A stretch of DNA of 40,000 nucleotides from assembly GCF_003072645.1 (NCBI RefSeq), contig NZ_CP028897.1:655658-695657 (forward strand), written 5' to 3'. Position numbers and translations under genes: made by a program. Positions 3,500 through 35,046 of this stretch are shown one piece after another. Source of the stretch: Dongshaea marina. GTDB lineage: Bacteria; Pseudomonadota; Gammaproteobacteria; Enterobacterales; Aeromonadaceae. The notes under the pieces were generated by a model. That model had not been told where the DNA came from and ran no database searches. It worked only from the letters and a program-made list of their open reading frames with translations. The first letter of the stretch is position 1; each line of letters starts with the position of its first letter.

Positions 3500-4363
3500 A
3501 TGAAAACAGTAAATAACGAAAACCCCGTAGATTGCCTGAGCCCTGAGGCGATCGCCGCCCTGGCCGAGGAAACAACGATCGCTAAGGCGACGAAGCCGAT
3601 TGGTAAGTCATTTATGCTGGCGATTACCGCCGGGGTCTTTATCTCGATCGCCTTTGTGTTTTATGTCACGGTGACCACAGGTTCAGCTGGTATGCCCTGG
3701 GGAATGTCTCACTTTGTCGGTGCATTGGCGTTCTCCCTGGGACTTATTCTGGTGGTGCTTTTGGGCGCAGAGCTCTTTACCTCCTCAACTCTGACTATCC
3801 TGGCGAGAGCTTCAAACCGGATCACGACCAGACAGGTGTTGGGGAACTGGGTTCTGGTGTACCTGGGGAATTTTGTCGGTGCCATGGTGATGGTGGCGCT
3901 GATCTTCTTCTCGGCGCAGTTTATGGCGGATAAGGGGCAATGGGGATTGACGGCGCTTAAGCTTGCTCAGCATAAGATCCATCACACCTTTGTGCAGGCG
4001 GTGTGCCTTGGGATCCTGTGTAACCTGTTGGTTTGCCTGGCGGTATGGATGGCGTTTGGTGCCCGTAGTGCCACTGATAAGGTGATGGTGCTGATACTCC
4101 CCGTGGCCATGTTTGTCGCCTCTGGTTTTGAACACAGCATTGCCAATATGTTTATGATACCGACCGGCATCATCATCCATGCCTTTGCCGGGCCTGAGTT
4201 CTGGCAGGCGATCGGCCACTCACCGAGTGATTTTGCCGATCTCACTGTGCATAACTTTGTGCTGAAGAACCTGATTCCTGTGACCCTGGGGAATATCATC
4301 GGGGGTGGGGTGATGGTTGGCCTGGTTTACTGGGGGATCTTCCGTCGTAAGTACGCTCAGTGA
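3500..4363 (+). CDS. focA: formate channel FocA (formate/nitrite transporter family)
   Basis: Near-collinear with E. coli FocA as recalled: LAITAGVFISIAFVFY, FTSSTL, HKIHHTFVQAVCLGILCNLLVCLAVWM, LPVAMFVASGFEHSIANMFMIP, NLIPVTLGNIIGGG. ATG 3500 chosen; an in-frame TTG at 3491 is possible. Confidence 0.93.
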   Translation: MKTVNNENPVDCLSPEAIAALAEETTIAKATKPIGKSFMLAITAGVFISIAFVFYVTVTTGSAGMPWGMSHFVGALAFSLGLILVVLLGAELFTSSTLTILARASNRITTRQVLGNWVLVYLGNFVGAMVMVALIFFSAQFMADKGQWGLTALKLAQHKIHHTFVQAVCLGILCNLLVCLAVWMAFGARSATDKVMVLILPVAMFVASGFEHSIANMFMIPTGIIIHAFAGPEFWQAIGHSPSDFADLTVHNFVLKNLIPVTLGNIIGGGVMVGLVYWGIFRRKYAQ

Positions 4364-4389
4364 GTTAGTGCAGCGAAGCGCTATTATCT

Positions 4390-4745
4390 ATACCACTTCT
4401 CTGTGTATTATGATTTGCAGCTGCGCTGCAAGTGCCGGTGCTGACCGGCGGCAGGCAAGGCCGTTCTCAGGCATCCTGCCCTTCACGGCATTGATATATC
4501 CCTATATGGCAAAGGTGCTCCGCGCTTCTGATACACAGGGAAGTGTGAATGTCGCGTTAAACATGGATGTTGTTAGCGGCATGCATCTCCCGGGGCGCCC
4601 CGAACCTCACTTCCTCCTGGGCTCATCTAAGAGTTAAGGCATCACTTAGACATCACATCCATGTGGTGACTAAGCTCTCGCGATATCCCTATCGCTCAGC
4701 CTCAATACTTAACGGTTCGCCTCGGCGTTCGCTCACGGGGAGTTA
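4390..4745 (-). ncRNA. candidate CsrB/RsmZ-like GGA-loop hairpin-array RNA (unit A-left); alternatively a hairpin-array repeat
   Basis: No credible ORF. Minus-strand hairpins GGC-AGGAU-GCC (4470-4480), AUAU-AGGG-AUAU (4494-4507), CAC-AUGGAU-GUG (4654-4665), GCGAU-AGGGAU-AUCGC (4680-4695). Hand count on the plus strand 4441-4750: 9 TCC versus 3 GGA. Shares modules with 34490-34610. Confidence 0.4.
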
Positions 4746-4747
4746 GT

Positions 4748-4850
4748 CCCCGTCTATTTGCGCCGAAAGTTTCAAATAGGAAGCAGAGGGTGAGCGGCAT
4801 GGACACCGCGAAAGGGCAACCAGTACATGGACGTACTGTTGGCCTGATCT
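4748..4850 (+). ncRNA. short GGA-loop hairpin unit (A-right), same family
   Basis: Starts with the module CCCCGTCTATTTGCGCCGAA (19/20 with the minus strand of 13492-13511). It is followed by AGGAAG, GCGG-CAUGGACA-CCGC (4794-4809) and CAGUAC-AUGGAC-GUACUG (4821-4838). 3 GGA versus 0 TCC. Confidence 0.25.
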
Positions 4851-4856
4851 GATATG

Positions 4857-5246
4857 CTATCCCTCTTCGGTGACCTTGACTTCGTAACTGTAGGTCTGTC
4901 CATTAGCCAAAATTAGCGGGTAGATAGCGGTTTGTCCAAGTTTGAGATTTAGCGTACCAAGATCGAGGTTGAGCATAGGGGAAGGTGCCATTGCACTTGA
5001 TGTGGGTAGAGCAAGCTGGCTAGCGAGCTTAATGTGTGATATGTCCAGAGGTTTAACCAATACATCCAGCTTCAATTTATTATCGAGTAACATTTTAGCA
5101 TTTATATTTTGCTTCACGATGATCGTGGGCTGAGCGTAAGCTGCACCGTTATACAGAATACGGGCTTTAACCTGGTAGTTGGGGTGGGCCATAACTGAGG
5201 TTGTGGCTGTGATTAAGCTCAGCCCTAAAACCAATAGGCTTTTCAT
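4857..5246 (-). CDS. hypothetical secreted protein
   Basis: ATG at 5246 with AGGA 6 nt upstream. Signal-peptide-like N-terminus MKSLLVLGLSLITATTSVMA. No recognisable family. Confidence 0.55.
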   Translation of the reverse strand: MKSLLVLGLSLITATTSVMAHPNYQVKARILYNGAAYAQPTIIVKQNINAKMLLDNKLKLDVLVKPLDISHIKLASQLALPTSSAMAPSPMLNLDLGTLNLKLGQTAIYPLILANGQTYSYEVKVTEEG

Positions 5247-5559
5247 GTGCAATCCTTATTAGTTTGCTGCGATTTATTATACGTTCAATAGATCGCAGTG
5301 TGTGGCCCCTTCTCGCTGAGCCGGCCTAATTGCTTTGAACGACTGAGTTTGAGCAGTGTAGCTTTGTTGAGTGTCCACTATTTCTGGTTCAGATCACAGC
5401 TCTATTACTACTTCACAGGGAAAATGATCGATTAAACTTCCTTTATTTTCCCTTTAGAGAAGCTCAGAAAGCTCTGAGCGAGGAACCTTAAGCGTGATAC
5501 TTCTGGGCTTTCTGGGGATCCGCTTAAGTAAGGCTTTTTTCTGGCTCTGTTGCAAAAAT

Positions 5560-6901: not shown

Positions 6902-8409
6902 TTAACGAAATGCAGCAACGAGTGCGGGGATCCCCGGTAGCATCCCGACCACAGCCATCGCGATAAAGCAGATACAAAAAGAAAGCCCTGGAATTACTAC
7001 TTTATCCACAAAACTGAGTGTTTTGGAGCGCTCTTTATCGCCGATTAATCCATTGTTATCCAATAGCATGGTTAATGACCAGCCAAAGACGGGATTAACT
7101 ACCGCAGAGGCAAAGATGCAGATCCCGGCGGACTGAGTGTCTTTTGCTGATTTAACCATCAGCATACCCGCTTCCAGCAAGGGTAAAAATACCCCGACCA
7201 GCAGAGCGATACTCATCACAGGCCGCCACACCGTAATATCCATGGGATAGCCTATCAGTGCAACCAGCGCACAGAGCACCCCAAGTAAGATAGCGCCTCC
7301 GGGGATAGGACGTTTGGCGATCGCCGCCGGTATCATGTAGGTTCCCCAGGATGAGGTGATGTTACCTCCTCCAAGAAAGCCCCAATAATTTGACGGACCG
7401 AGCAGGCTGTCATGGTGTCGTCCACATCCATCAAAACTTTTTTGGCTTTTTTCGGGTAGTTCAGCTCCTGGAAAACCCTGTGTCCCAGGAAGTCGGGAGA
7501 CCACATGGCGACGGCAAGAATGGCAAAAGGCAAAGATGCGATAAAGTGCTGCATCGTTGGCAAGCCTAGCTTCCAACCGGTTTCTGTGGATCCCCACCAA
7601 TACACGGGGTTCAGGTTTGGTAAGCCGGGTTCGGTTTTAAATTCAAAGGGTGCCCCAAGCCCTAAGGCGATCACTACTGCGATCACTGAGCATAAGGGGA
7701 TCGAGAGCCAGCGCTTGCCGATGCGAGCCAGGTAGGCATAAACCACAACATTGACCAGTAGCACAATGAAGGCGATATAGCTGAGATCCATTTCTCCGGC
7801 CCACTCGACCAGTGAGCCGATCTGAGAGATGGTTCCGGTGAGGCCCAGATAAGCAAGTAACCCTCCGGCAACGCCTTCACCGGTCAGTTTTACCAGCCTG
7901 GAGCCGCCCTTGGTAATACTCAGAATCAAACCAAAGACCCCGAGCATGATGGCCAGCGCCAGAGGGTGTCCCCCCGCGAGAGCTATCATGCCGATCAGTG
8001 GGATCATAGGTCCATGGGTTCCCGCCAAATTGGCCCGGGGGTTGAAAAGTCCTGAGGTCAGGATCACAAACAGTGAGGCGGATACCAGCATCTCAGCCCG
8101 GACATTCTCAATCACAAAGTCATCACTCAGGCCATAACTTGCTGCATAGGATGACATGATCGCTGAAAACATCACCGTAATACCGATAGTTCCTGCAATG
8201 GCGGGAACCAGATCCTCCCACTCAATACGAAAGTCTCTGCCGGGAAGGTTTAGCCGCCAGCGGCGGGGCTTCATTATGATGAGTTCATGATCAAGGTAAT
8301 CTGAGCGCTTGGCAAACTCACTGCTTGGACGGTGCAATTCACGATAACTCTTTTCTTGATCAAGATCCTTGTTACTCGTATCCGTTTCGTGGGAATTATT
8401 GTTTTGCAT
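6902..8409 (-). pseudogene. polytopic membrane permease of unrecognised family, one 1-nt frameshift as assembled
   Basis: ORFs 7333-8427 and 6902-7600 overlap in different frames. Protein-like sequence switches at ...MTACSVRQIIGAFL | GGGNITSSWGTYMIPAAIAKRP, near 7368-7375. Adding one G to the coding-strand GG run restores about 502 aa with many TM segments. ATG 8409 with GAGAAGG at 8419-8425. Confidence 0.7.
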
Positions 8410-8439
8410 AATTGCGTACCTTCTCAATAGCAGCTGCTA

Positions 8440-8853: not shown

Positions 8854-9651
8854 TTAGGGGGCCGGAGAGTAGACCCTTGGCTGGCTGCGCTGGGGCAGGT
8901 GAAGCAGGTTTAAGCCATGTTTACGCGCCAGCTCGACCGCCAGGGTGGTCGGGGAGGCCATGGTCACCAGACACTCCAGGCCGCTACGAATCGATTTTTG
9001 CACCAACTCGATGCTGCAGCGGCTGGTCATCAGGACCACACCGGCACGGGTGTCGATCTGTTGTTGTTGCAATTGACCGATCAGCTTATCCAGGGCGTTA
9101 TGACGGCCAACATCTTCTGAGCAGAACAAGAGCTCACCGGCACTGTCCATATAGAGGGCTGCATGCATGGCACCGCCCTGACTCTGGAAATCACGTACCC
9201 GGTCGCGAAGACCTTCGAACAGCTTGGGTTGTGGCAGGCGGGCAGGCTCCAGCTCGGGAAGATCGGGAAAGGCGGCACTCAGTGAATCTATGCCACACAG
9301 GCCGCAGCCGGTGCGTCCAGCCAGGGCGCGGCGATGAGCGCGAACCCGATAGTCTGCCCTATGGCTCAGGGTGATATCTGCGACTATGGCTCCTCCCTCC
9401 CACTGCCACTCGATATCCTGGACTTCGAGGCGGTTTTTGACGATTCCCTCGCTGATAATGAAACCCAGCAGGAAGGGCTCAATTTCGGTGGGAGAGATCA
9501 TCATCACGGCATGGTTTACCCCATTGAGGCTGATGGCGATGGGCACCTCATTGACCAGTTCAACCGGCTGAGCCTTGTCGTCCTCCAAGGATGTATAGTT
9601 CATGGCAAGGTGGTTGAGCTCACAAGGCTCGGTGCTGGAGCGACACGACAT
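8854..9651 (-). CDS. fdhD: formate dehydrogenase accessory sulfurtransferase FdhD
   Basis: 265 aa. VPIAISLNGVNHAVMMISP, RRALAGRTGCGLCGIDSL, EDVGRHNALDKLIG, MTSRCSIELVQKS match FdhD. Confidence 0.9.
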   Translation of the reverse strand: MSCRSSTEPCELNHLAMNYTSLEDDKAQPVELVNEVPIAISLNGVNHAVMMISPTEIEPFLLGFIISEGIVKNRLEVQDIEWQWEGGAIVADITLSHRADYRVRAHRRALAGRTGCGLCGIDSLSAAFPDLPELEPARLPQPKLFEGLRDRVRDFQSQGGAMHAALYMDSAGELLFCSEDVGRHNALDKLIGQLQQQQIDTRAGVVLMTSRCSIELVQKSIRSGLECLVTMASPTTLAVELARKHGLNLLHLPQRSQPRVYSPAP

Positions 9652-9792
9652 AGAGAGTCCTTTTCTTAAGCATGGATTTTAATGATGGGCAAGTGTATCA
9701 AAAGATCAGGAATTCTCATGCTACAATTGGTCTGCTCTTTGTGATTTATCCTGAGTGACTTGGGGGAGAGCCTGGGGAATTTATGTGATAAA

Positions 9793-9834
9793 ATGATTTG
9801 CATCAATAAATTTACCCTCTGTTTCCCTTAGTAT
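9793..9834 (+). promoter_or_regulatory. candidate class II FNR-dependent promoter of selC(-selAB)
   Basis: ATGAT-TTGC-ATCAA (9793-9806; 9/10 to TTGAT-N4-ATCAA), centre 9799.5. The -10-like TAGTAT at 9829-9834 puts a start near 9841. That places the box at -41.5 and the start 7 nt before the mature tRNA 5' end. Confidence 0.45.
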
Positions 9835-9847
9835 TCAGGGCGATTAT

Positions 9848-9939
9848 GGAATGAGATAGGGTCTGGTGGCCCTCTCGGTCTTCAAAACCGATGTGAGCTG
9901 TATCGGCTTAGGCAGGTTCGATTCCTGCCTCTTCCGCCA
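9848..9939 (+). tRNA. selC: tRNA-Sec (anticodon UCA)
   Basis: 92 nt. Anticodon loop CUUCAAA (UCA 9882-9884). 6-bp D-stem AGGGUC/GGCCCU with a 4-nt loop. Long variable arm. T-arm GCAGG-UUCGAUU-CCUGC. Discriminator G plus CCA. The 3' end resembles E. coli selC. The acceptor stem has an unpaired U5. Confidence 0.9.
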
Positions 9940-10017
9940 CTTCCAGGATGCTTTTTCGCCTCTTTCAGTTTAAAATTCCGCTGAAATTCTGCTCGATCTC
10001 TGAATCGTGTCATAAAG

Positions 10018-11418
10018 ATGTCTGAAATCAGTTCAAGGAATGTTGCCGTGTCCGCCAAAACAGCAGTCAATTACCGTCTTCCCCAGGTTGAGCAGCTTCT
10101 GCAGCACAACATACTAGTTCCTTATATCCGGATCCTCAGTCGACCCGTAGTGACCGAGATTATTCGCGCCCAGTTTGCCAAGATCCGTCAATCGCCGCTG
10201 TTTAAGGAGAAGGGAGTCGATGGAATTGATGTGCTGCAGCTTTTGGTGAAAGCCTGCGAGGAGCAACAACTGCGCCGTCAGACCCGGGTGATCAATGCTA
10301 CCGGCATCGCGGTTCATACCAATCTTGGACGCTCTCCTCTATGTCCTGAGCTGTGGGACAGTGTGCGTCATATCAATACCGGCTATAGCAACCTGGAGCT
10401 AGAACTGAGCAGTGGTAAGCGTGGTGGACGCAACGGGCTGCTTTCTACTCTGGTCAATGCCTGGCTGGGCGCCGAAGATTGTGTACTGGTCAATAATAAT
10501 GCCGCTTCTATGTACCTCATCCTGCATGCACTGGCTGCGGGCAAAGAGGTGATCGTTTCCCGGGGTGAGCAGATCCAGATTGGTGGCGGTTTTCGGATCC
10601 CGGATATTTTAGCTCTGTCCGGCTGTAAGCTGGTGGAGGTGGGGACGACCAATATCACCACCAGTGATGATTACATCGATGCGATCACCGAAAATACCGC
10701 CATGGTGTTGATGGTCCATCAATCCAACTTTTCGATTCAGGGGTTCACCGAATCACCCGATATCCAGGATGTGGCGCGTCGCCTGCCGGAGCATGTTCAG
10801 CTGGTGGTGGATCAGGGATCGGGACTGTCAACGGAGCAGTATGCGGACAGTGAAACCTCACTGGCGCGTTATCTGCAAATGGGGGCCGATCTGGTGTGTT
10901 TCTCCGGTGATAAGATCATCGGGGGCCCTCAGGCAGGATTTATCGCAGGGCGCAGTGAGCTCACCAAGATCCTGGCTAAAAATCCTATGATGCGCGCCTT
11001 CAGGCCGGGACGAATTGTGCTGTCACTGCTTGAGGAGCTGCTGGTTCGTAAGCTCAACCAGCTGGATTCAGGGGAGGGGGTTGCCCAGCACGCCCTGAAT
11101 CGTGCACAGCAGACCCGGGAGCTTGCCGATGAGCTGGCTGCTCGCTGGCCTGGCTACGCCCAGGCAACACCGATGCAGATGCAGGTGGGCGGCGGCTCGA
11201 TTCCCAGTGAAACCTATGACTGTTTTGGGCTCACTCTATCTTTGCCGGGTAAGGCGCAGCAGCACCTGGATGCCCTACGGGCTCTTGCGACCCCGATTAT
11301 CGGCTATCTTCAGTCAGAGCGGGTACTCCTGAACCTGGCAACCTTGCTCCCTGAGGATATGGCACTGTTCCTGTCTCAGCTTGATTCCTATTTTGAGGCC
11401 CTTGGCGCACAGGCTTAA
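10018..11418 (+). CDS. selA: L-seryl-tRNA(Sec) selenium transferase
   Basis: 466 aa. INATGIAVHTNLGRS, VSRGEQIQIGGGFRIPD and FSGDKIIGGPQAGFIAG (PLP lysine region) are SelA hallmarks. Confidence 0.92.
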   Translation: MSEISSRNVAVSAKTAVNYRLPQVEQLLQHNILVPYIRILSRPVVTEIIRAQFAKIRQSPLFKEKGVDGIDVLQLLVKACEEQQLRRQTRVINATGIAVHTNLGRSPLCPELWDSVRHINTGYSNLELELSSGKRGGRNGLLSTLVNAWLGAEDCVLVNNNAASMYLILHALAAGKEVIVSRGEQIQIGGGFRIPDILALSGCKLVEVGTTNITTSDDYIDAITENTAMVLMVHQSNFSIQGFTESPDIQDVARRLPEHVQLVVDQGSGLSTEQYADSETSLARYLQMGADLVCFSGDKIIGGPQAGFIAGRSELTKILAKNPMMRAFRPGRIVLSLLEELLVRKLNQLDSGEGVAQHALNRAQQTRELADELAARWPGYAQATPMQMQVGGGSIPSETYDCFGLTLSLPGKAQQHLDALRALATPIIGYLQSERVLLNLATLLPEDMALFLSQLDSYFEALGAQA

Positions 11419-11422
11419 TCAG

Positions 11423-13267
11423 ATGATCTATCAGAATAACTCAGAGTCGGCCTATCAGGCTGTTGTTGGTTTGGCCGGACATGTTGATCATGGTAAGACG
11501 GCGCTGATTGAGGCGCTGACCGGCATGATGACGGCTCGCCCTCATGAGCAGGCGCTGGGGATGACCCAGGATCTGGGGTTTGCCCATTTTGCGGATGATG
11601 CAGGTAATACCATAGGGGTGGTTGATGTACCGGGCCATGAGCGCTACCTGCGTAACATGGTAGCCGGAGTCTGGCATCTCAATGCGTTGATACTGGTGAT
11701 CGCCGCCGATGAGGGATGGATGCCTATGACCACCTCCCACCTGCAGGTGGCTCATGCGATGGGGATCAGCAATATCATCGTCTGTATCAACAAGAGTGAT
11801 AAGGTTTCCTCCGAAGAGCTGGCCGAGGTTGAGGAGCAGGCTCTGGAGCATGTGATGGATATGTCCGGTCTGGTGCCTGAGCTCGTGAGTGTCTCGGCAC
11901 TGAGCGGCGATAATATCCCTGAGCTTAGGGAGCTAATCATTGAGACCCTGACCCAAGATCTTTGTGTGCCTTGTGTAGATTCTGATCAGCCAAAGATAGA
12001 GGCTGAGCCTTTACTCTATGTGGATCGGGCATTTGTGGTTAATGGGATTGGGACCGTGGTTACAGGCACCCTGGCCCAGGGAATACTCTCTATTGGTGAT
12101 AAGGTGCGCTGTTACCCATCAGGCCTTTTGGGAACTGTGCGCTCACTGCAGGCCTATCACCGCCAGCTTGAAAGCGTCTCCGGAACCTGCCGGGTCGCAG
12201 TGAATATCAAGGGGCTGACCCGTAAAGAGGTTGAGCGGGGTCACCTGGTGACCGGGCGTGAGCAGAAGATAGCTCAGTGTGAACAGTGCCTGGTACGACT
12301 CAATCCCTCGGAGGATGAGCCATCGGCGAAACGACAGCGGGAGGTTGAGGTTGCGATTGGTACCTGGCATGGCTTTGCAAAGCTCTGCTATATCCCCAAC
12401 ACCAACCTGGCGCGGTTGATATTTAAAAAGCCGGTCTCGCTGCAGTTTGCCCAACGGCTGGCGATGATTCAAAAAGGCGGGAGCCGCCTGTTGCACGGTG
12501 CTCAGGTGGTATGGACCGACTTTATTCCCTCCTATCAGAAGCGCCGTATCTACACAGCTCTTAATGAATTGCCAGAGAGCCTGACGGCGGAAGCTCTGCC
12601 ACAGCTGCTGCTTAGCCTGCAAGGATATTTTGATGTCGAGCAGATCGCAGGAGATAGCGACTGTCAGGGCGTGACCCTTGGTCCTTATCTGTTTGAATCT
12701 GACTGGCTAGCCAGGGCTCAGGAAAATATTTTGCAGCGCCTTGATAAGGGGTTGTCGCTCAGTAGCGTCGAGCTCAGCGATCAGCTGGAGATCGAAGAGC
12801 CGGTGTTGAATGTCATCATGCAGGAGCTCAAGCAGCGGCAGATCGTACACCTCAGTTATGGCAAATGGCGTCATGGGGAGGGGGATAATGAGGATGAACT
12901 TCCCACAGAGGCGCTAACCCTGTTGCAGCAAACCCGCGATTGCGGCAAGGCGGGGCTTGAGCTTTCCAAGATAAAACTGGCTCCGGGCTCCAAGAAGTGG
13001 CTGCGCCAGCTATGCCACCAGAAATATATTACCGCACTGGATGAAAGCATCTATTACGACATGGGGATCTACCGGGAGATGATCCAGGCGGTGGTCGCCG
13101 ATCACCAGAGTCAGGATCGGATCTCGATGGGGGATATCAAGGATCGCACCGGGCTGAGCCGTAAGTATGCGATCCCCCTGGCCAACCGGATGGAAAAAGA
13201 TGGCTGGGTGCGGCGGGATGGGGATGAGCGAATCATCCTGAAATCCTGGGAAGAGGTTTCGTCTTAA
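11423..13267 (+). CDS. selB: selenocysteine-specific elongation factor
   Basis: ATG 11423 lies 5 nt after the selA stop. 614 aa. G-domain GHVDHGKTALIEALTG, DVPGHERY, NKSD, plus a long winged-helix C-terminal part. Confidence 0.92.
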   Translation: MIYQNNSESAYQAVVGLAGHVDHGKTALIEALTGMMTARPHEQALGMTQDLGFAHFADDAGNTIGVVDVPGHERYLRNMVAGVWHLNALILVIAADEGWMPMTTSHLQVAHAMGISNIIVCINKSDKVSSEELAEVEEQALEHVMDMSGLVPELVSVSALSGDNIPELRELIIETLTQDLCVPCVDSDQPKIEAEPLLYVDRAFVVNGIGTVVTGTLAQGILSIGDKVRCYPSGLLGTVRSLQAYHRQLESVSGTCRVAVNIKGLTRKEVERGHLVTGREQKIAQCEQCLVRLNPSEDEPSAKRQREVEVAIGTWHGFAKLCYIPNTNLARLIFKKPVSLQFAQRLAMIQKGGSRLLHGAQVVWTDFIPSYQKRRIYTALNELPESLTAEALPQLLLSLQGYFDVEQIAGDSDCQGVTLGPYLFESDWLARAQENILQRLDKGLSLSSVELSDQLEIEEPVLNVIMQELKQRQIVHLSYGKWRHGEGDNEDELPTEALTLLQQTRDCGKAGLELSKIKLAPGSKKWLRQLCHQKYITALDESIYYDMGIYREMIQAVVADHQSQDRISMGDIKDRTGLSRKYAIPLANRMEKDGWVRRDGDERIILKSWEEVSS

Positions 13268-13284
13268 CCTGCGGTTGGCTGGTT

Positions 13285-13830
13285 TGTGCCTGCGGCACAC
13301 TAATGCCGCTGCCGAGCGGCAGCGGGAAGAGGGTATTGCTTGTCCAATACCCTCTTCACTCCCAAGGACACCCCGGAATTTGCTTCATCCCCATGCTCCA
13401 TCAGATTCACTAACGGACAGACAGAACGTCCCTGTTCTGACTGTCCTTCAATCACATCCATGTGATTGATACGTTCATCAACAATGAAGCATTCGGCGCA
13501 AATAAACGGGGCCCAACATCCCAGTCAGTTAGCTCGGTGGTGATATCTAAATTTTTTCTCTGTTCTGGTTTCAGCGCTGAAACAAAAAACTCCAGGAGAA
13601 ACTGAAAGTACCTCGGATATCAAATCGAAGAGAGGAAGTTATATCCCTGATCTCGCTTACCCCTCGAAGAGCCTGAGGAAAAAAGTTCCGATCAGACAGT
13701 AATCCCTATATTGACTGCTCTCTCGAAACATCCTGTTTCTCGACTTTAAGCCTCCACGGCTCTCCTCGGAGCTTGCTCATGGGGAGCAAACTTAATATTC
13801 ACTTCGATTATTATTTTCAGTGAGGTGATT
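13285..13830 (-). ncRNA. candidate GGA-loop hairpin-array RNA or repeat (unit B)
   Basis: Minus-strand hairpins: 13-bp stem with loop AGGGAC (13415-13446), CAAUCAC-AUGGAU-GUGAUUG (13449-13468), GAAAC-AGGAU-GUUUC (13725-13739), loop CAAUAUAGGGAUU (13697-13717), and a perfect 13-bp stem with GGACAAG (13326-13357). Hand count on the plus strand: 16 TCC versus 11 GGA. Shared modules at 13492-13511 and 13619-13641. Confidence 0.35.
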
Positions 13831-31920: not shown

Positions 31921-34005
31921 ATGGAACGCTTTGAAAGTGATTTGATGAGTTTTTCAAAAGCACTGCTATCGATTAATGATATCTCTGGTCTGATGACTTT
32001 TCTAAATGATGATAACCTCTCTTTTATTCAGGTAGATAGAGTTAACATTATTTTGAAAAGTGATCTCAACACTTTTCCAACCCTCTATCATTTGGATGAA
32101 AATAAACAACTACAGCGTTATGAATATAATGCCGATGGAATGCCTCTGCATAGTGTTGCGAATGATGATTACACCCATAAAATAGAGGGTGAGGCTCTCT
32201 ACCTGAGTTACCCTCAATTAATAAATCATCCTGCTTATATCGATGTGAACAGTTATTATAAGGTTCCATTGACGACCGCAAATCAACAACTCGGCGCCAT
32301 AGAATTCATCAATATTCAACAGAGTAGTGAGGGGATTCAGGAGAAAAAACTTAAGCTATTCAATAACATGATAGCAACCATGGTGGAGCATATCATTGAG
32401 CATGAGCTGGCTTCAAATGCAGCCCAGCAATTGAATAATGAGCGTAAGAATTTTCAGGTGTTGGTTGATGTTACTAATGCAGTGATCAGTAAAAGTACCA
32501 AGAAAGATCTGATTACATCTTTGTTGAAATTTATCTATCAGCACTTTGGGATGAGAGACCTGTCCATCATTCAGGTTCATGAAGGACATTATAATCAGCA
32601 CTCCTGTAGTTATAGCGGTGGTAATATCGATTATCACAGTCACTTTTTTACCAATGCTCAATCGATCAAGCAGGTGATTGAAAATAAAAAGCCGCTGTTT
32701 TTGGATGAAGACTCAATTCGTGGGTTAAGCTTTGAAACCAACGCTCCCTTCTTTCCTTCTGAGGTAAAGAGTGCCTGTGTTGTGCCTATGGTTTTTCGTA
32801 GTGGAACCGTCGGCTATATCTGTTATATGCAGCGCCAGGAGCGCACATTTTTGCCCGATGATGTGGTGCTGTTCGGCCAGATTGCTGCCAGGGTCGCGCT
32901 GGCGATGCATAGCCTCAAGGTGCATGAAGCCAGATCTAAAACCAGAGCGGGTGGTAAGTATATCAGTATTGAAGATAGCTATATGGAGCATGCTATTTTT
33001 GATGACATCATCAGCCAGAGTGAGGCGATGAACCAGGTTCTGGATCAGGTGACTATGGTCGCTGACTGTGACAGCACAGTGCTGATCCTCGGTGAGTCGG
33101 GTACGGGTAAGGAGCTGATTGCCCAGGCGATTCACAAGATGAGTCGGCGCAGTGGTACCCGGATGGTCAAGATGAACTGTGCAGCGGTTCCAGCGGGACT
33201 CTTTGAAAGTGAGCTGTTTGGCCATGAGCGCGGTGCTTTTACCGGAGCGATCAGTAAGCGGGTGGGGCGCTTTGAAGAGGCCCATAAGGGGACTTTGTTT
33301 CTCGATGAGATTGGCGATATGCCCCTTGAGCTGCAGCCTAAGCTGCTCAGGGCTTTGCAGGAAAATGAGATTGAGCGGGTGGGTAAGAATCAGCAGATCT
33401 CGGTTGATGTACGGATCGTGGTGGCAACCAATGCTGATTTGGACTCTATGGTTGAGTCCAAAGCTTTTCGCAGCGATCTCTATTACCGCTTAAATGTGTT
33501 CCCTATCCTGATCCCCCCCCTGCGGGAGCGCCCCGAGGATATCCCTCTGCTGGTGAAGCATTTTACCCGGGTGATCTCCAAAAAGATGGGGAAGAATATT
33601 ACCGATATCACGGTTGAGGCGATGGATGTGCTGAGCCGCTGTGCCTGGCCGGGGAATGTCCGTCAGCTGCGTAACTTCATCGAGCGTTCAGTGATCCTGA
33701 CCCGGGGTCAGGTGCTCAATGTTCCTGTCGCTGAACTTCAGGGCCAGGGGACGCGGCCAACCCGCCAGACGGCTGAGCCGATATTTGAGGTCGAGCCTGC
33801 TCCCAAGCCGGTGGCGACCGATAACGGCTTTGATCGTGACGCTATTATCGATGCGCTGCGCCGCAGTAACGGGATCATCTCGGGACCGCGGGGCGCCGCA
33901 ACCAAGCTCGGGCTCAAGCGTACCACTCTTTTATCCCGGATGCAGAAGATGGGGATCAAGAGCCAGGACTACCTTGAGGAGGCCGACGAAGAGAACTTCG
34001 CCTGA
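31921..34005 (+). CDS. fhlA: formate hydrogenlyase transcriptional activator (sigma-54-dependent, GAF-AAA+-HTH)
   Basis: 694 aa. [19 protein letters not shown] (compare E. coli CRERDNFRILVAITNAVLS), [35 protein letters not shown]-terminal [22 protein letters not shown]. Confidence 0.92.
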
Positions 34006-34011
34006 TTTTCC

Positions 34012-34044
34012 GCCGGAGGCTCACTAAGCCTCCGGCTTTCCTTT
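34012..34044 (+). terminator. rho-independent terminator of fhlA
   Basis: GCCGGAGGCT-CACTA-AGCCTCCGGC followed by TTTCCTTT. Confidence 0.85.
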
Positions 34045-34049
34045 ACCAG

Positions 34050-34440
34050 TAGCTGACTTTTCATTGTGCTTCGCACGGCTAAATTGCAGCTGCGCAGCAT
34101 GATTGTCGGGGTGCCGGCAGCACATTACTTTTGTACCGCCAAAAGTAATCAAAAGCTCCCTTCGCGCTGCGAGTCCCTCCGCAGCTCGATGATGACCATC
34201 CTTGGTCATCTATCCCAGTTCAGCTTCCTGCTTCTCGTTCCATTACCCTTGGGGTAATTTCACCCTATCTCACGTTACGTTGCTCTGGGAGCAACTTCCC
34301 CCCTCCGAAGAGCTGAGGGGTGTACTCGCAGCATCCATGCTGCTCCACTTCAAATCACTTTATGATTTTTCGGCACGAATCAAAGGGGGCTCTAAAACTA
34401 CCTCTTCGATTTAGTTTTGGTGACTTTTTCGAGCAAAGCA
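34050..34440 (-). ncRNA. candidate GGA-loop hairpin-array RNA (unit C-left)
   Basis: Hand count on the plus strand: 11 TCC versus 1 GGA. Minus-strand hairpins GAUGACCA-AGGA-UGGUCAUC (34191-34210), GCAGC-AUGGAU-GCUGC (34328-34343), GCUGCGGAGGGACUCGCAGC (34166-34185). Further GGA in AAUGGAAC, GCAGGAAGC, CUGGGAU, AAGGGAG. Confidence 0.4.
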
Positions 34441-34790
34441 GGAAGCTTCAAGCTGTAATACCGAATCAAATCGAAGAGAGGAAGTTAACCCCCGTGAGCG
34501 AGCGCCGAGGCGAGCCGTAGAAGATTCAGGTCGAATCACATGGATGTGATGAGAGCTTAGCCGCTACAGGGATGTTGCGTCTAAGCGGTGCCTTAATGCT
34601 CAGGTGAGCCGAGGGTTAAGCGAGATCCGGGGCGCGAGGGGATTGCAAAGGGGAAAGGCGTTTGCCCCTTTGCTCGCTGTCGGGCGATCCCGACAATTAC
34701 TGCAAATCTGCCATCCGCAGGATAAAGATCGACGTAGTTTGACCTGCGGTCAGCTGATTTGTGCCACAGGCACAAAACAGCTGGCTTTTA
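34441..34790 (+). ncRNA. candidate GGA-loop hairpin-array RNA (unit C-right) with terminator
   Basis: 7 GGA versus 3 TCC. Hairpins AUCAC-AUGGAU-GUGAU (34535-34550) and GCUUAGCCGC-UACAGGGAUGUU-GCGUCUAAGC (34555-34586; the loop matches the CsrA SELEX motif ACARGGAUGU), plus GCAAAGGGG...CCCCUUUGC (34645-34673). Ends in a 15-bp stem with a U-rich tail. Confidence 0.45.
34751..34790 (+). terminator. terminator-like hairpin closing unit C-right
   Basis: CAGCTGATTTGTGCC-ACA-GGCACAAAACAGCTG (one mismatch) followed by GCTTTTAGTCGCAATTTTT. Confidence 0.55.
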
Positions 34791-34878: not shown

Positions 34879-35046
34879 ATGGGGAAAATTGTATCGATTG
34901 AATTGAGTGAGATTCACCAGGCATTAATTCAGCGAGCGGCAGAGTTAGCGGGAATGGAGCTTGAAGAGTATGTCCATTATGTCAGTGTTGAGGCTTCCAA
35001 AAAAGTGTTGGGACTGTGTGGTGGTGAACCCGAAGAGCTCGGTTGA
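34879..35046 (+). CDS. short DUF1778/TacA-like (ribbon-helix-helix) antitoxin-like ORF, apparently truncated and orphan
   Basis: 55-aa ORF, below the track cutoff: MGKIVSIELSEIHQALIQRAAELAGMELEEYVHYVSVEASKKVLGLCGGEPEELG. It resembles the N-terminal half of TacA-type antitoxins. No intact GNAT toxin ORF follows. Confidence 0.4.
   Translation: MGKIVSIELSEIHQALIQRAAELAGMELEEYVHYVSVEASKKVLGLCGGEPEELG

Follow-up and report, generated by a model that had tools for sequence, protein, structure and literature searches.

TwoAYGGAY-like repeat units with paired GGA-loop hairpins downstream of focA in Dongshaea marina

The 40,000-nt stretch of the Dongshaea marina genome shown above (hereafter the window) contains, directly downstream of focA, an intergenic region (positions 4364-4856, hereafter tract A) which lies between the focA stop and the convergent open reading frame (ORF) 4857-5252. 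A preliminary description had read tract A as an array of at least eight hairpins with conserved GGA loops and had proposed it as a CsrB/RsmZ-like sponge RNA. Our results indicate that tract A instead holds two clear Y-shaped units, and perhaps three or four, in each of which a long closing stem bears two GGA hairpins. The unit has a defined structure with covarying stems, is present in multiple copies in the window and is related to TwoAYGGAY, a structured motif in the same Rfam clan as CsrB. We favour, with moderate confidence, the interpretation that tract A is a cluster of lineage-specific dispersed TwoAYGGAY-like units, which would be transcribed by read-through and serve as modular elements for docking or titrating CsrA.

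Structure and copies of the repeat unit

All eight hairpins of the preliminary description are present in tract A with the sequences that it gave, four of them on the minus strand (4470-4480, 4494-4507, 4654-4665 and 4680-4695) and four on the plus strand (4534-4547, 4560-4571, 4794-4809 and 4821-4838). When hairpins with at least four Watson-Crick pairs and GGA inside a 4-8-nt loop were counted, tract A contained seven, compared with 0.91 on average and at most 5 in dinucleotide shuffles, none of 1000 shuffles reaching seven. The density of GGA hairpins is 14.2 per kb in tract A versus 2.1 per kb in the window outside tract A and the two other repeat-bearing tracts (B and C, see below), and folding of 4364-4856 against shuffles gave a z of about -4.9 on each strand. 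The strand asymmetry of the tract was also reproduced exactly, with nine TCC versus three GGA on the plus strand of 4441-4750 and three GGA versus no TCC in 4751-4856. Consistent with the earlier view that the tract holds no credible ORF, the mechanically called ORFs 4317-4637, 4567-4746 and 4772-4903 obtained no Pfam support. The loop motif A-N-GGA-Y that had been assigned to all hairpins stands only in part: the conserved GGA is real, but the loops GGGAAG (4534-4547) and AGGG (4494-4507) do not fit, and the AGGAU loop of 4470-4480 lacks the N.

Copies of the unit were defined by alignment, by nhmmer and by a covariance model of our own (R1) searched without filters over the 40 kb, and all copy counts given here cover this window of one genome. 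Three intergenic regions contained five clear copies and a further one or two that are weak, in both orientations and with pairwise identities of 58-74% (Table 1); the unfiltered covariance model returned no further match to the unit. Blastn within the window aligned 4588-4745 with 34642-34486 (73% identity), 4717-4839 with 13543-13421 (64%) and 13645-13809 with 34631-34469 (69%), and matched 4650-4839 to its own reverse complement, and a 24-nt degenerate motif taken from the unit had three matches in the window versus none expected. Six copies, including C0, comprise two on the plus and four on the minus strand, with A1/A2 and C0/C1 arranged head to head and B2/B1 in tandem. In tract A, A1 accounts for the minus-strand hairpins 4680-4695 (its hairpin 1) and 4654-4665 (its hairpin 2), and A2 for the plus-strand hairpins 4794-4809 (hairpin 1) and 4821-4838 (hairpin 2). 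The back-to-back geometry noted before, in which a minus-strand part and a plus-strand part meet at the palindrome at 4735-4753, is retained as the junction of A1 and A2, and tract A contains at least two copies of the unit and probably one or two further degenerate copies. The preliminary description had taken occurrence of the same hairpin type in hundreds of intergenic regions as the mark of a REP-like family, and occurrence at a few loci as that of small RNA (sRNA) genes; within the window, the unit was found in two other intergenic regions in addition to tract A, in both orientations.

Table 1. Repeat units and associated features in the window. hp1 and hp2, hairpins 1 and 2; R1, covariance model of the D. 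marina unit; R2, covariance model of published Psychromonas ingrahamii TwoAYGGAY cores.
Feature	Position	Strand	Scores and parts
A1, full Y-shaped unit	4579-4751	minus	R1 173 bits; nhmmer E=1.4e-47; R2 23.9 bits, E=3e-4 at 4630-4703
A1 core	4598-4740	minus	5' closing arm 4699-4740; hp1 4677-4698; hp2 4644-4675; 3' arm 4598-4640
A1 hp1	4677-4698	minus	GCGAU-AGGGAU-AUCGC; includes hairpin 4680-4695
A1 hp2	4644-4675	minus	two-part stem, outer GCUUAG/CUAAGU and apical CAC/GUG; AUGGAU loop; includes hairpin 4654-4665
Palindrome ACGGGGA-GTTAG-TCCCCGT	4735-4753		A1 and A2 meet here with overlapping 5' ends (CCCCGU)
A2, unit with short closing stem	4735-4880	plus	nhmmer E=2e-28; R1 32.6 bits (two-hairpin core); R2 16.3 bits, E=0.046; inverted repeats I7, I9
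A2 parts		plus	leader hairpin (5') 4755-4779; basal stem 4785-4795 with 4856-4866; hp1 4794-4809; hp2 4815-4844
Possible degenerate third core (weak)	4514-4600	plus	R2 13.2 bits, E=0.36; R1 E=0.39; holds hairpins 4534-4547 and 4560-4571
Domain A0, multi-hairpin	4394-4545		17-bp closing stem 4394-4410 with 4529-4545; holds minus-strand hairpins 4470-4480 and 4494-4507
B2, full unit downstream of selB	13352-13522	minus	R1 151 bits; Rfam TwoAYGGAY 38.9 bits, E=1e-4; R2 25.1 bits, E=1.3e-4
B1, full unit, outer closing stem extended (AAUCGAAG...CUUCGAUU)	13612-13822	minus	R1 148.6 bits at 13636-13795
C1, full unit downstream of FhlA-like sigma-54 activator gene	34479-34650	plus	R1 176 bits; Rfam TwoAYGGAY 31.4 bits, E=0.008; R2 18.8 bits, E=0.009
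C0, degenerate copy or copies	34140-34401	minus	nhmmer E=5e-4 at 34325-34391; R1 12.9 bits at 34226-34401; R2 13.9 bits, E=0.23 at 34140-34220

The core of the unit measures ~145 nt, and the outer stem brings the total to as much as ~190 nt. RNAalifold analysis of the four full copies gave a Y shape in which a long imperfect closing stem (5' CCCCG...CGGGG 3') encloses two adjacent hairpins. The consensus comprises 45 pairs, 21 of which show compensatory changes across these four copies, in agreement with the covariation of stems proposed earlier. Over the four copies 93.2% of the cells were paired, versus 29-40% after the partners had been slid by 1-3 columns; 21 pairs were altered on both sides versus 2-6 in the slid controls, and none of 500 shuffles reached the observed values. 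The closing stem itself (consensus helices 1-4, 26 pairs) is paired in 83-97% of cells and also contains compensatory changes. In B1, the extended fold runs through AAUCGAAG/CUUCGAUU to form a single long rod of ~35 bp topped by the two hairpins.

GGA is invariant in all ten apical loops of the five units, five of which are AYGGAY, four AGGGAY and one AGGAU, and the distance from GGA to GGA is 28 nt in every unit. The consensus recognized by CsrA/RsmE is (A/U)CANGGANG(U/A); eight of the ten loops are A-N-GGA-Y hexaloops closed by a C-G pair, which fit this consensus. In addition, the closing stems carry tandem mismatches, namely two GA/GA in C1, one GA/GA and one GA/CA in A1, and one GA/GA and one AA/GA in B1; in B2, one of the sites has Watson-Crick pairs and the other is GA/GG.

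Several further observations concern individual units. The stop and last codons of ORF 4857-5252 (minus strand, 131 aa), an ORFan known only from D. marina, fall in the 3' arm of the A2 basal stem (4856-4866), and the 3' end of this ORF may have been supplied by the A2 repeat. The segments 4561-4570 and 4655-4664 form a perfect 10-nt complement (ACATGGATGT / ACATCCATGT), so that A1 hairpin 2 could pair with sequence lying downstream of the unit, which would mask the GGA of the hairpin; equally, the complement could be the remnant of an inverted partial unit. An identical 23-mer, ATCAAATCGAAGAGAGGAAGTTA, occurs at 13619-13641 and 34465-34487, flanking B1 and C1, with a related copy at 34403-34417. 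In B1 it is the 3' half of the extended outer stem, with its partner at 13790-13812, and in C1 it lies at the 5' side without a partner; it may mark the true ends of the element. At the same position in A1 (4633-4650) and C1 (34580-34597) a TCTAAG-N6-CTTAA sequence is found with three mismatches to the core of the GacA/UvrY box. Matches to this box in the window number 13 versus 11.7 by chance, in line with the earlier statement that tract A has no such box.

Relationship to TwoAYGGAY and other known elements

Searched at the gathering threshold, Rfam reported only tRNA and tRNA-Sec in the whole window, and nothing relevant was obtained for tract A at E<=10. The models of CsrB and CsrC and of RsmX, RsmY and RsmZ gave no match either at gathering or at E<=10, and the proposed assignment of tract A to a gene of this type was abandoned; as a positive control, E. 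coli csrB scored 380 bits, and the same scan places CsrB in clan CL00106. Permissive Rfam scans of tracts B and C did, however, match B2 and C1 to RF01731 TwoAYGGAY, on the GGA strand and exactly over the two-hairpin core (Table 1). This nearest family shares clan CL00106 with CsrB.

We further built a covariance model (R2) from five published Psychromonas ingrahamii TwoAYGGAY cores only. Run with filters off over both strands of the 40 kb, R2 ranked B2, A1, C1 and A2 as its top four matches, followed by 34140-34220 (minus strand) within C0 and, in sixth place, by the possible third core of tract A (Table 1). Conversely, a nhmmer profile of the D. marina unit recovered four of these five published Psychromonas sequences, with up to 24 bits. 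The matches in both directions identify tract A as a cluster of TwoAYGGAY-like units. The D. marina unit is a divergent relative of TwoAYGGAY, far enough from it to score below the Rfam threshold.

TwoAYGGAY was described as a motif with a pair of terminal loops reading AYGGAY, closed by a P1 stem "often very large (e.g., 24 base pairs)", a short stem also being allowed; it occurs in some Clostridia, gamma-proteobacteria and human gut metagenomes, and the published alignment includes several dispersed P. ingrahamii copies set among other repeats (Weinberg et al. 2010, PMC2864571). It has been predicted to sequester CsrA (Gardner & Eldai 2015, PMC4333381), and two tandem G·A mismatches have been reported in it (Cruz & Westhof 2011, as cited in PMC4333381). 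As of 2025 it was still called "relatively unexplored" (bioRxiv 10.1101/2024.12.11.627843). The D. marina units resemble TwoAYGGAY in having two adjacent AYGGAY-type hairpins, of which hairpin 1 is shorter and hairpin 2 longer and two-part, in the often very long closing stem, in their gamma-proteobacterial origin with several dispersed copies per genome as in P. ingrahamii, and in that the GGA strand is the modelled strand. The tandem G·A mismatches, which vary among the D. marina copies, may be a further likeness. In contrast, the closing stems of D. marina and of the Psychromonas copies are unrelated in sequence, four of ten loops are AGGGAY rather than AYGGAY, and the GGA spacing is 28 nt as opposed to 31 nt in four of the five Psychromonas copies (the most similar ones). 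The units are also densely packed locally in D. marina (5-6 copies per 40 kb), and a palindrome is shared within head-to-head pairs. The AGGGAY loop variant is present in published P. ingrahamii members too.

Beyond the window, pattern scans of genome, metagenome and viral collections gave nothing or single chance matches, the latter to a Marinilabiliaceae genome and to a high-GC coding region. When 5,426 complete E. coli genomes were searched by blastn in distant mode, no match was obtained, ERIC and REP elements included, and plasmid and phage collections contained no match to the unit. An ERIC identity was dropped for want of any similarity in the E. coli genomes. An integron attC or REP/RAYT identity was likewise set aside, as the GTTRRRY and GTAG signatures were not seen on reading the units, no pattern search having been run for them.

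Possible function and alternative explanations

Several features favour the GGA strand acting as RNA. The matches of Rfam and R2 all lie on this strand, there are nine G·U pairs versus four A·C, and the full Y shape is the RNA minimum-energy fold of the GGA strand in all four full units. The predicted folding energy of the GGA strand is lower than that of its complement by 6-11 kcal/mol in all five units, a difference to which we gave less weight for the reason stated below. When DNA parameters are used, the predicted folds of A1 and C1 lack the long stem, and z is weak (-1.3 to -2.2) for A1, C1 and B1. In the interpretation that we favour, the units would lack promoters of their own and would be transcribed by read-through from neighbouring genes, and a transcript of the GGA strand would then display two consensus CsrA/RsmE sites per unit. 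In dual-site binding, one CsrA dimer can bridge a range of distances that includes 28 nt. The fixed GGA spacing might thus be bridged by one dimer, with each unit clamping one dimer and acting as a modular element that docks or titrates CsrA. The present distribution of the copies is probably due to the spread of a dispersed repeat, which may be mobile.

A number of results weigh against this interpretation. The Rfam TwoAYGGAY scores are all below the gathering threshold of 43 bits, and the Rfam model reports neither A1 nor A2, nor B1 (E<=10 or E<=5). The covariation was counted on four paralogous copies, and the energy advantage of the GGA strand is largely compositional, since z against shuffles is similar on both strands. 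No promoter-like site was found in 4250-5400, which covers tract A and its surroundings. The only terminator-like site of tract A (4366-4383) follows immediately on the focA stop; it is within chance expectation and borders no unit, and the preliminary description had likewise noted no clean U-tailed terminator. In tracts B and C, too, none of the few consensus sites borders a unit. Relative to the upstream gene, four of the six copies run antisense, as B1 and B2 do relative to both neighbours, which leaves sense transcription uncertain. Finally, no relative of D. marina and no other copy of the repeat was detected in the genome, metagenome, viral, plasmid, phage and E. coli collections searched.

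The main rival explanation is that the unit is a selfish DNA repeat of the miniature inverted-repeat transposable element (MITE), REPIN or ERIC type, in which the closing stem is a terminal inverted repeat, the hairpins persist because a transposase or recombinase reads folded single-stranded DNA and the likeness of the loops to CsrA sites is coincidental. The units share with ERIC/IRU, REP/BIME, REPIN and Correia-type MITEs a multi-copy, intergenic occurrence at gene ends in both orientations, in mosaic clusters that are here tandem and head to head, as well as long imperfect palindromes; the closing stems are long and resemble terminal inverted repeats (~35 bp in B1), an identical 23-mer lies beside two copies, the units have no promoters, and TwoAYGGAY is patchily distributed (gut Clostridiales and a few gamma-proteobacteria), P. 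ingrahamii having several dispersed copies. Unlike such repeats, the D. marina unit has a centre that is not palindromic but formed by two distinct hairpins with a strand-specific conserved loop motif. Its divergent copies are strongly compensatory: although old (58-74% identity), they keep 93% of their pairs through compensatory changes, which is not expected from random decay of a dead mobile element. Moreover, the tandem G·A and the G·U pairs are typical of RNA helices, the folds with DNA parameters lose the long stem in A1 and C1, the CsrA/RsmE consensus with its closing C-G pair occurs in eight of ten loops, and the unit bears no sequence similarity to the E. coli repeats or to plasmids and phages. 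Compensatory evolution and the RNA-type stem features weaken the selfish-DNA explanation, which we consider unlikely though still a substantial contender, and which can coexist with a role at the RNA level.

By comparison, dedicated sponge sRNA genes of the CsrB/RsmZ type, which would produce a minus-strand RNA of ~355 nt and a plus-strand RNA of ~100 nt as strings of GGA hairpins transcribed on their own under GacA/UvrY control, appear most improbable. The GGA-loop hairpins are indeed enriched 7-fold or more, their loops fit the CsrA consensus as those of CsrB and CsrC and of RsmX, RsmY and RsmZ do, and the nearest Rfam family belongs to the CsrB clan. However, none of the corresponding models matches, each unit offers only two loop GGAs on a long rod, and the unit is multi-copy and dispersed, recurring in both orientations in two more intergenic regions. 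The promoter search of 4250-5400 was negative, the lone terminator-like site and the GacA/UvrY boxes stay at chance, and the overlap of the 5' ends of A1 and A2 leaves no room for a promoter upstream of either. Improbable too, though less so, is that the units are REP/BIME-like 3'-end elements whose stable hairpins shield upstream mRNAs from 3' exonucleases or stop read-through independently of CsrA. All three tracts begin right after the stop of a plus-strand gene (focA, selB and the fhlA-like gene), tract A lies between convergent genes, and the folds are very stable on both strands; but a function of this kind leaves unexplained the invariant GGA loops, the fixed 28-nt spacing and the Y architecture common to TwoAYGGAY of distant taxa, the units have no U-tails, and the fhlA-like gene already possesses a canonical terminator (34012-34036) ahead of the repeats.

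A bolder form of the CsrA interpretation, which we regard as speculative and rather unlikely, holds that the units are mobile MITE-like cassettes carrying a ready-made clamp for one CsrA dimer, which have expanded to many copies in the untranslated regions of D. marina and either serve together as a distributed sponge for CsrA or bring new transcripts under the Csr regulon. If true, it would give the orphan TwoAYGGAY motif a function and represent a new way to build a post-transcriptional regulon. TwoAYGGAY has been an orphan motif since 2010, and CsrA binding, the sole function proposed for it, is without experimental test in the literature that we found. As a cultured marine gamma-proteobacterium with dense, divergent copies, D. 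marina provides natural covariation data for the full structure, the long closing stem included, and a tractable system for probing CsrA binding. Standard Rfam annotation misses these copies. The case of tract A also illustrates that an array of GGA-loop hairpins need not be a sponge-RNA gene; its hairpins can belong, in pairs, to a dispersed repeat.

Genomic setting and other short repeats

The gene at 3500-4363 encodes a FocA-family protein and is preceded by deoA-deoB-deoD. More widely, the window is a region of formate and selenocysteine functions, with fdhD, tRNA-Sec, selA, selB and the gene of the FhlA-like sigma-54 activator, and the genes before the three tracts share this theme: focA (3500-4363), selB with tRNA-Sec, selA and fdhD adjacent (8854-13267), and the FhlA-like gene (31921-34005). 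This may be a mere reflection of the window content. The focA-pflB loci of the nearest FocA relatives (<=75% identity) are non-syntenic and without the repeat. Elsewhere in the window, a DUF3360 gene at 6902-8427 (minus strand) is split between two overlapping frames, ORF 7333-8427 corresponding to profile positions 6-351 and ORF 6902-7600 to positions 350-503, which points to a frameshift, be it in a pseudogene, through sequencing error or as recoding. A 55-aa ORF at 34879-35046 (plus strand) has a weak match to TacA-like antitoxins (E=7e-4, under the Pfam cutoff) and no obvious toxin partner.

Domain A0 of tract A (4394-4545) holds three or four hairpins and, unlike the units, folds better on the plus strand (-71.1 versus -62.6 kcal/mol). 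A0 could not be placed in the unit family and has no match in Rfam. All that it shares with tract C is a module of ~40 nt, common to 4414-4455 and 34083-34123 (TTGCAGCTGCGC.GCA...GCCGG...GGCA), in the same orientation and shortly past the focA and fhlA-like stops. The local alignment score is 38 (null maximum, 29), and the module looks to be a second family of small repeats. Similar GTGCC-N-GGCAC hairpins (TTTGTGCC...GGCACA) at 13278-13299 in tract B and 34751-34783 in tract C may represent a third short intergenic repeat.

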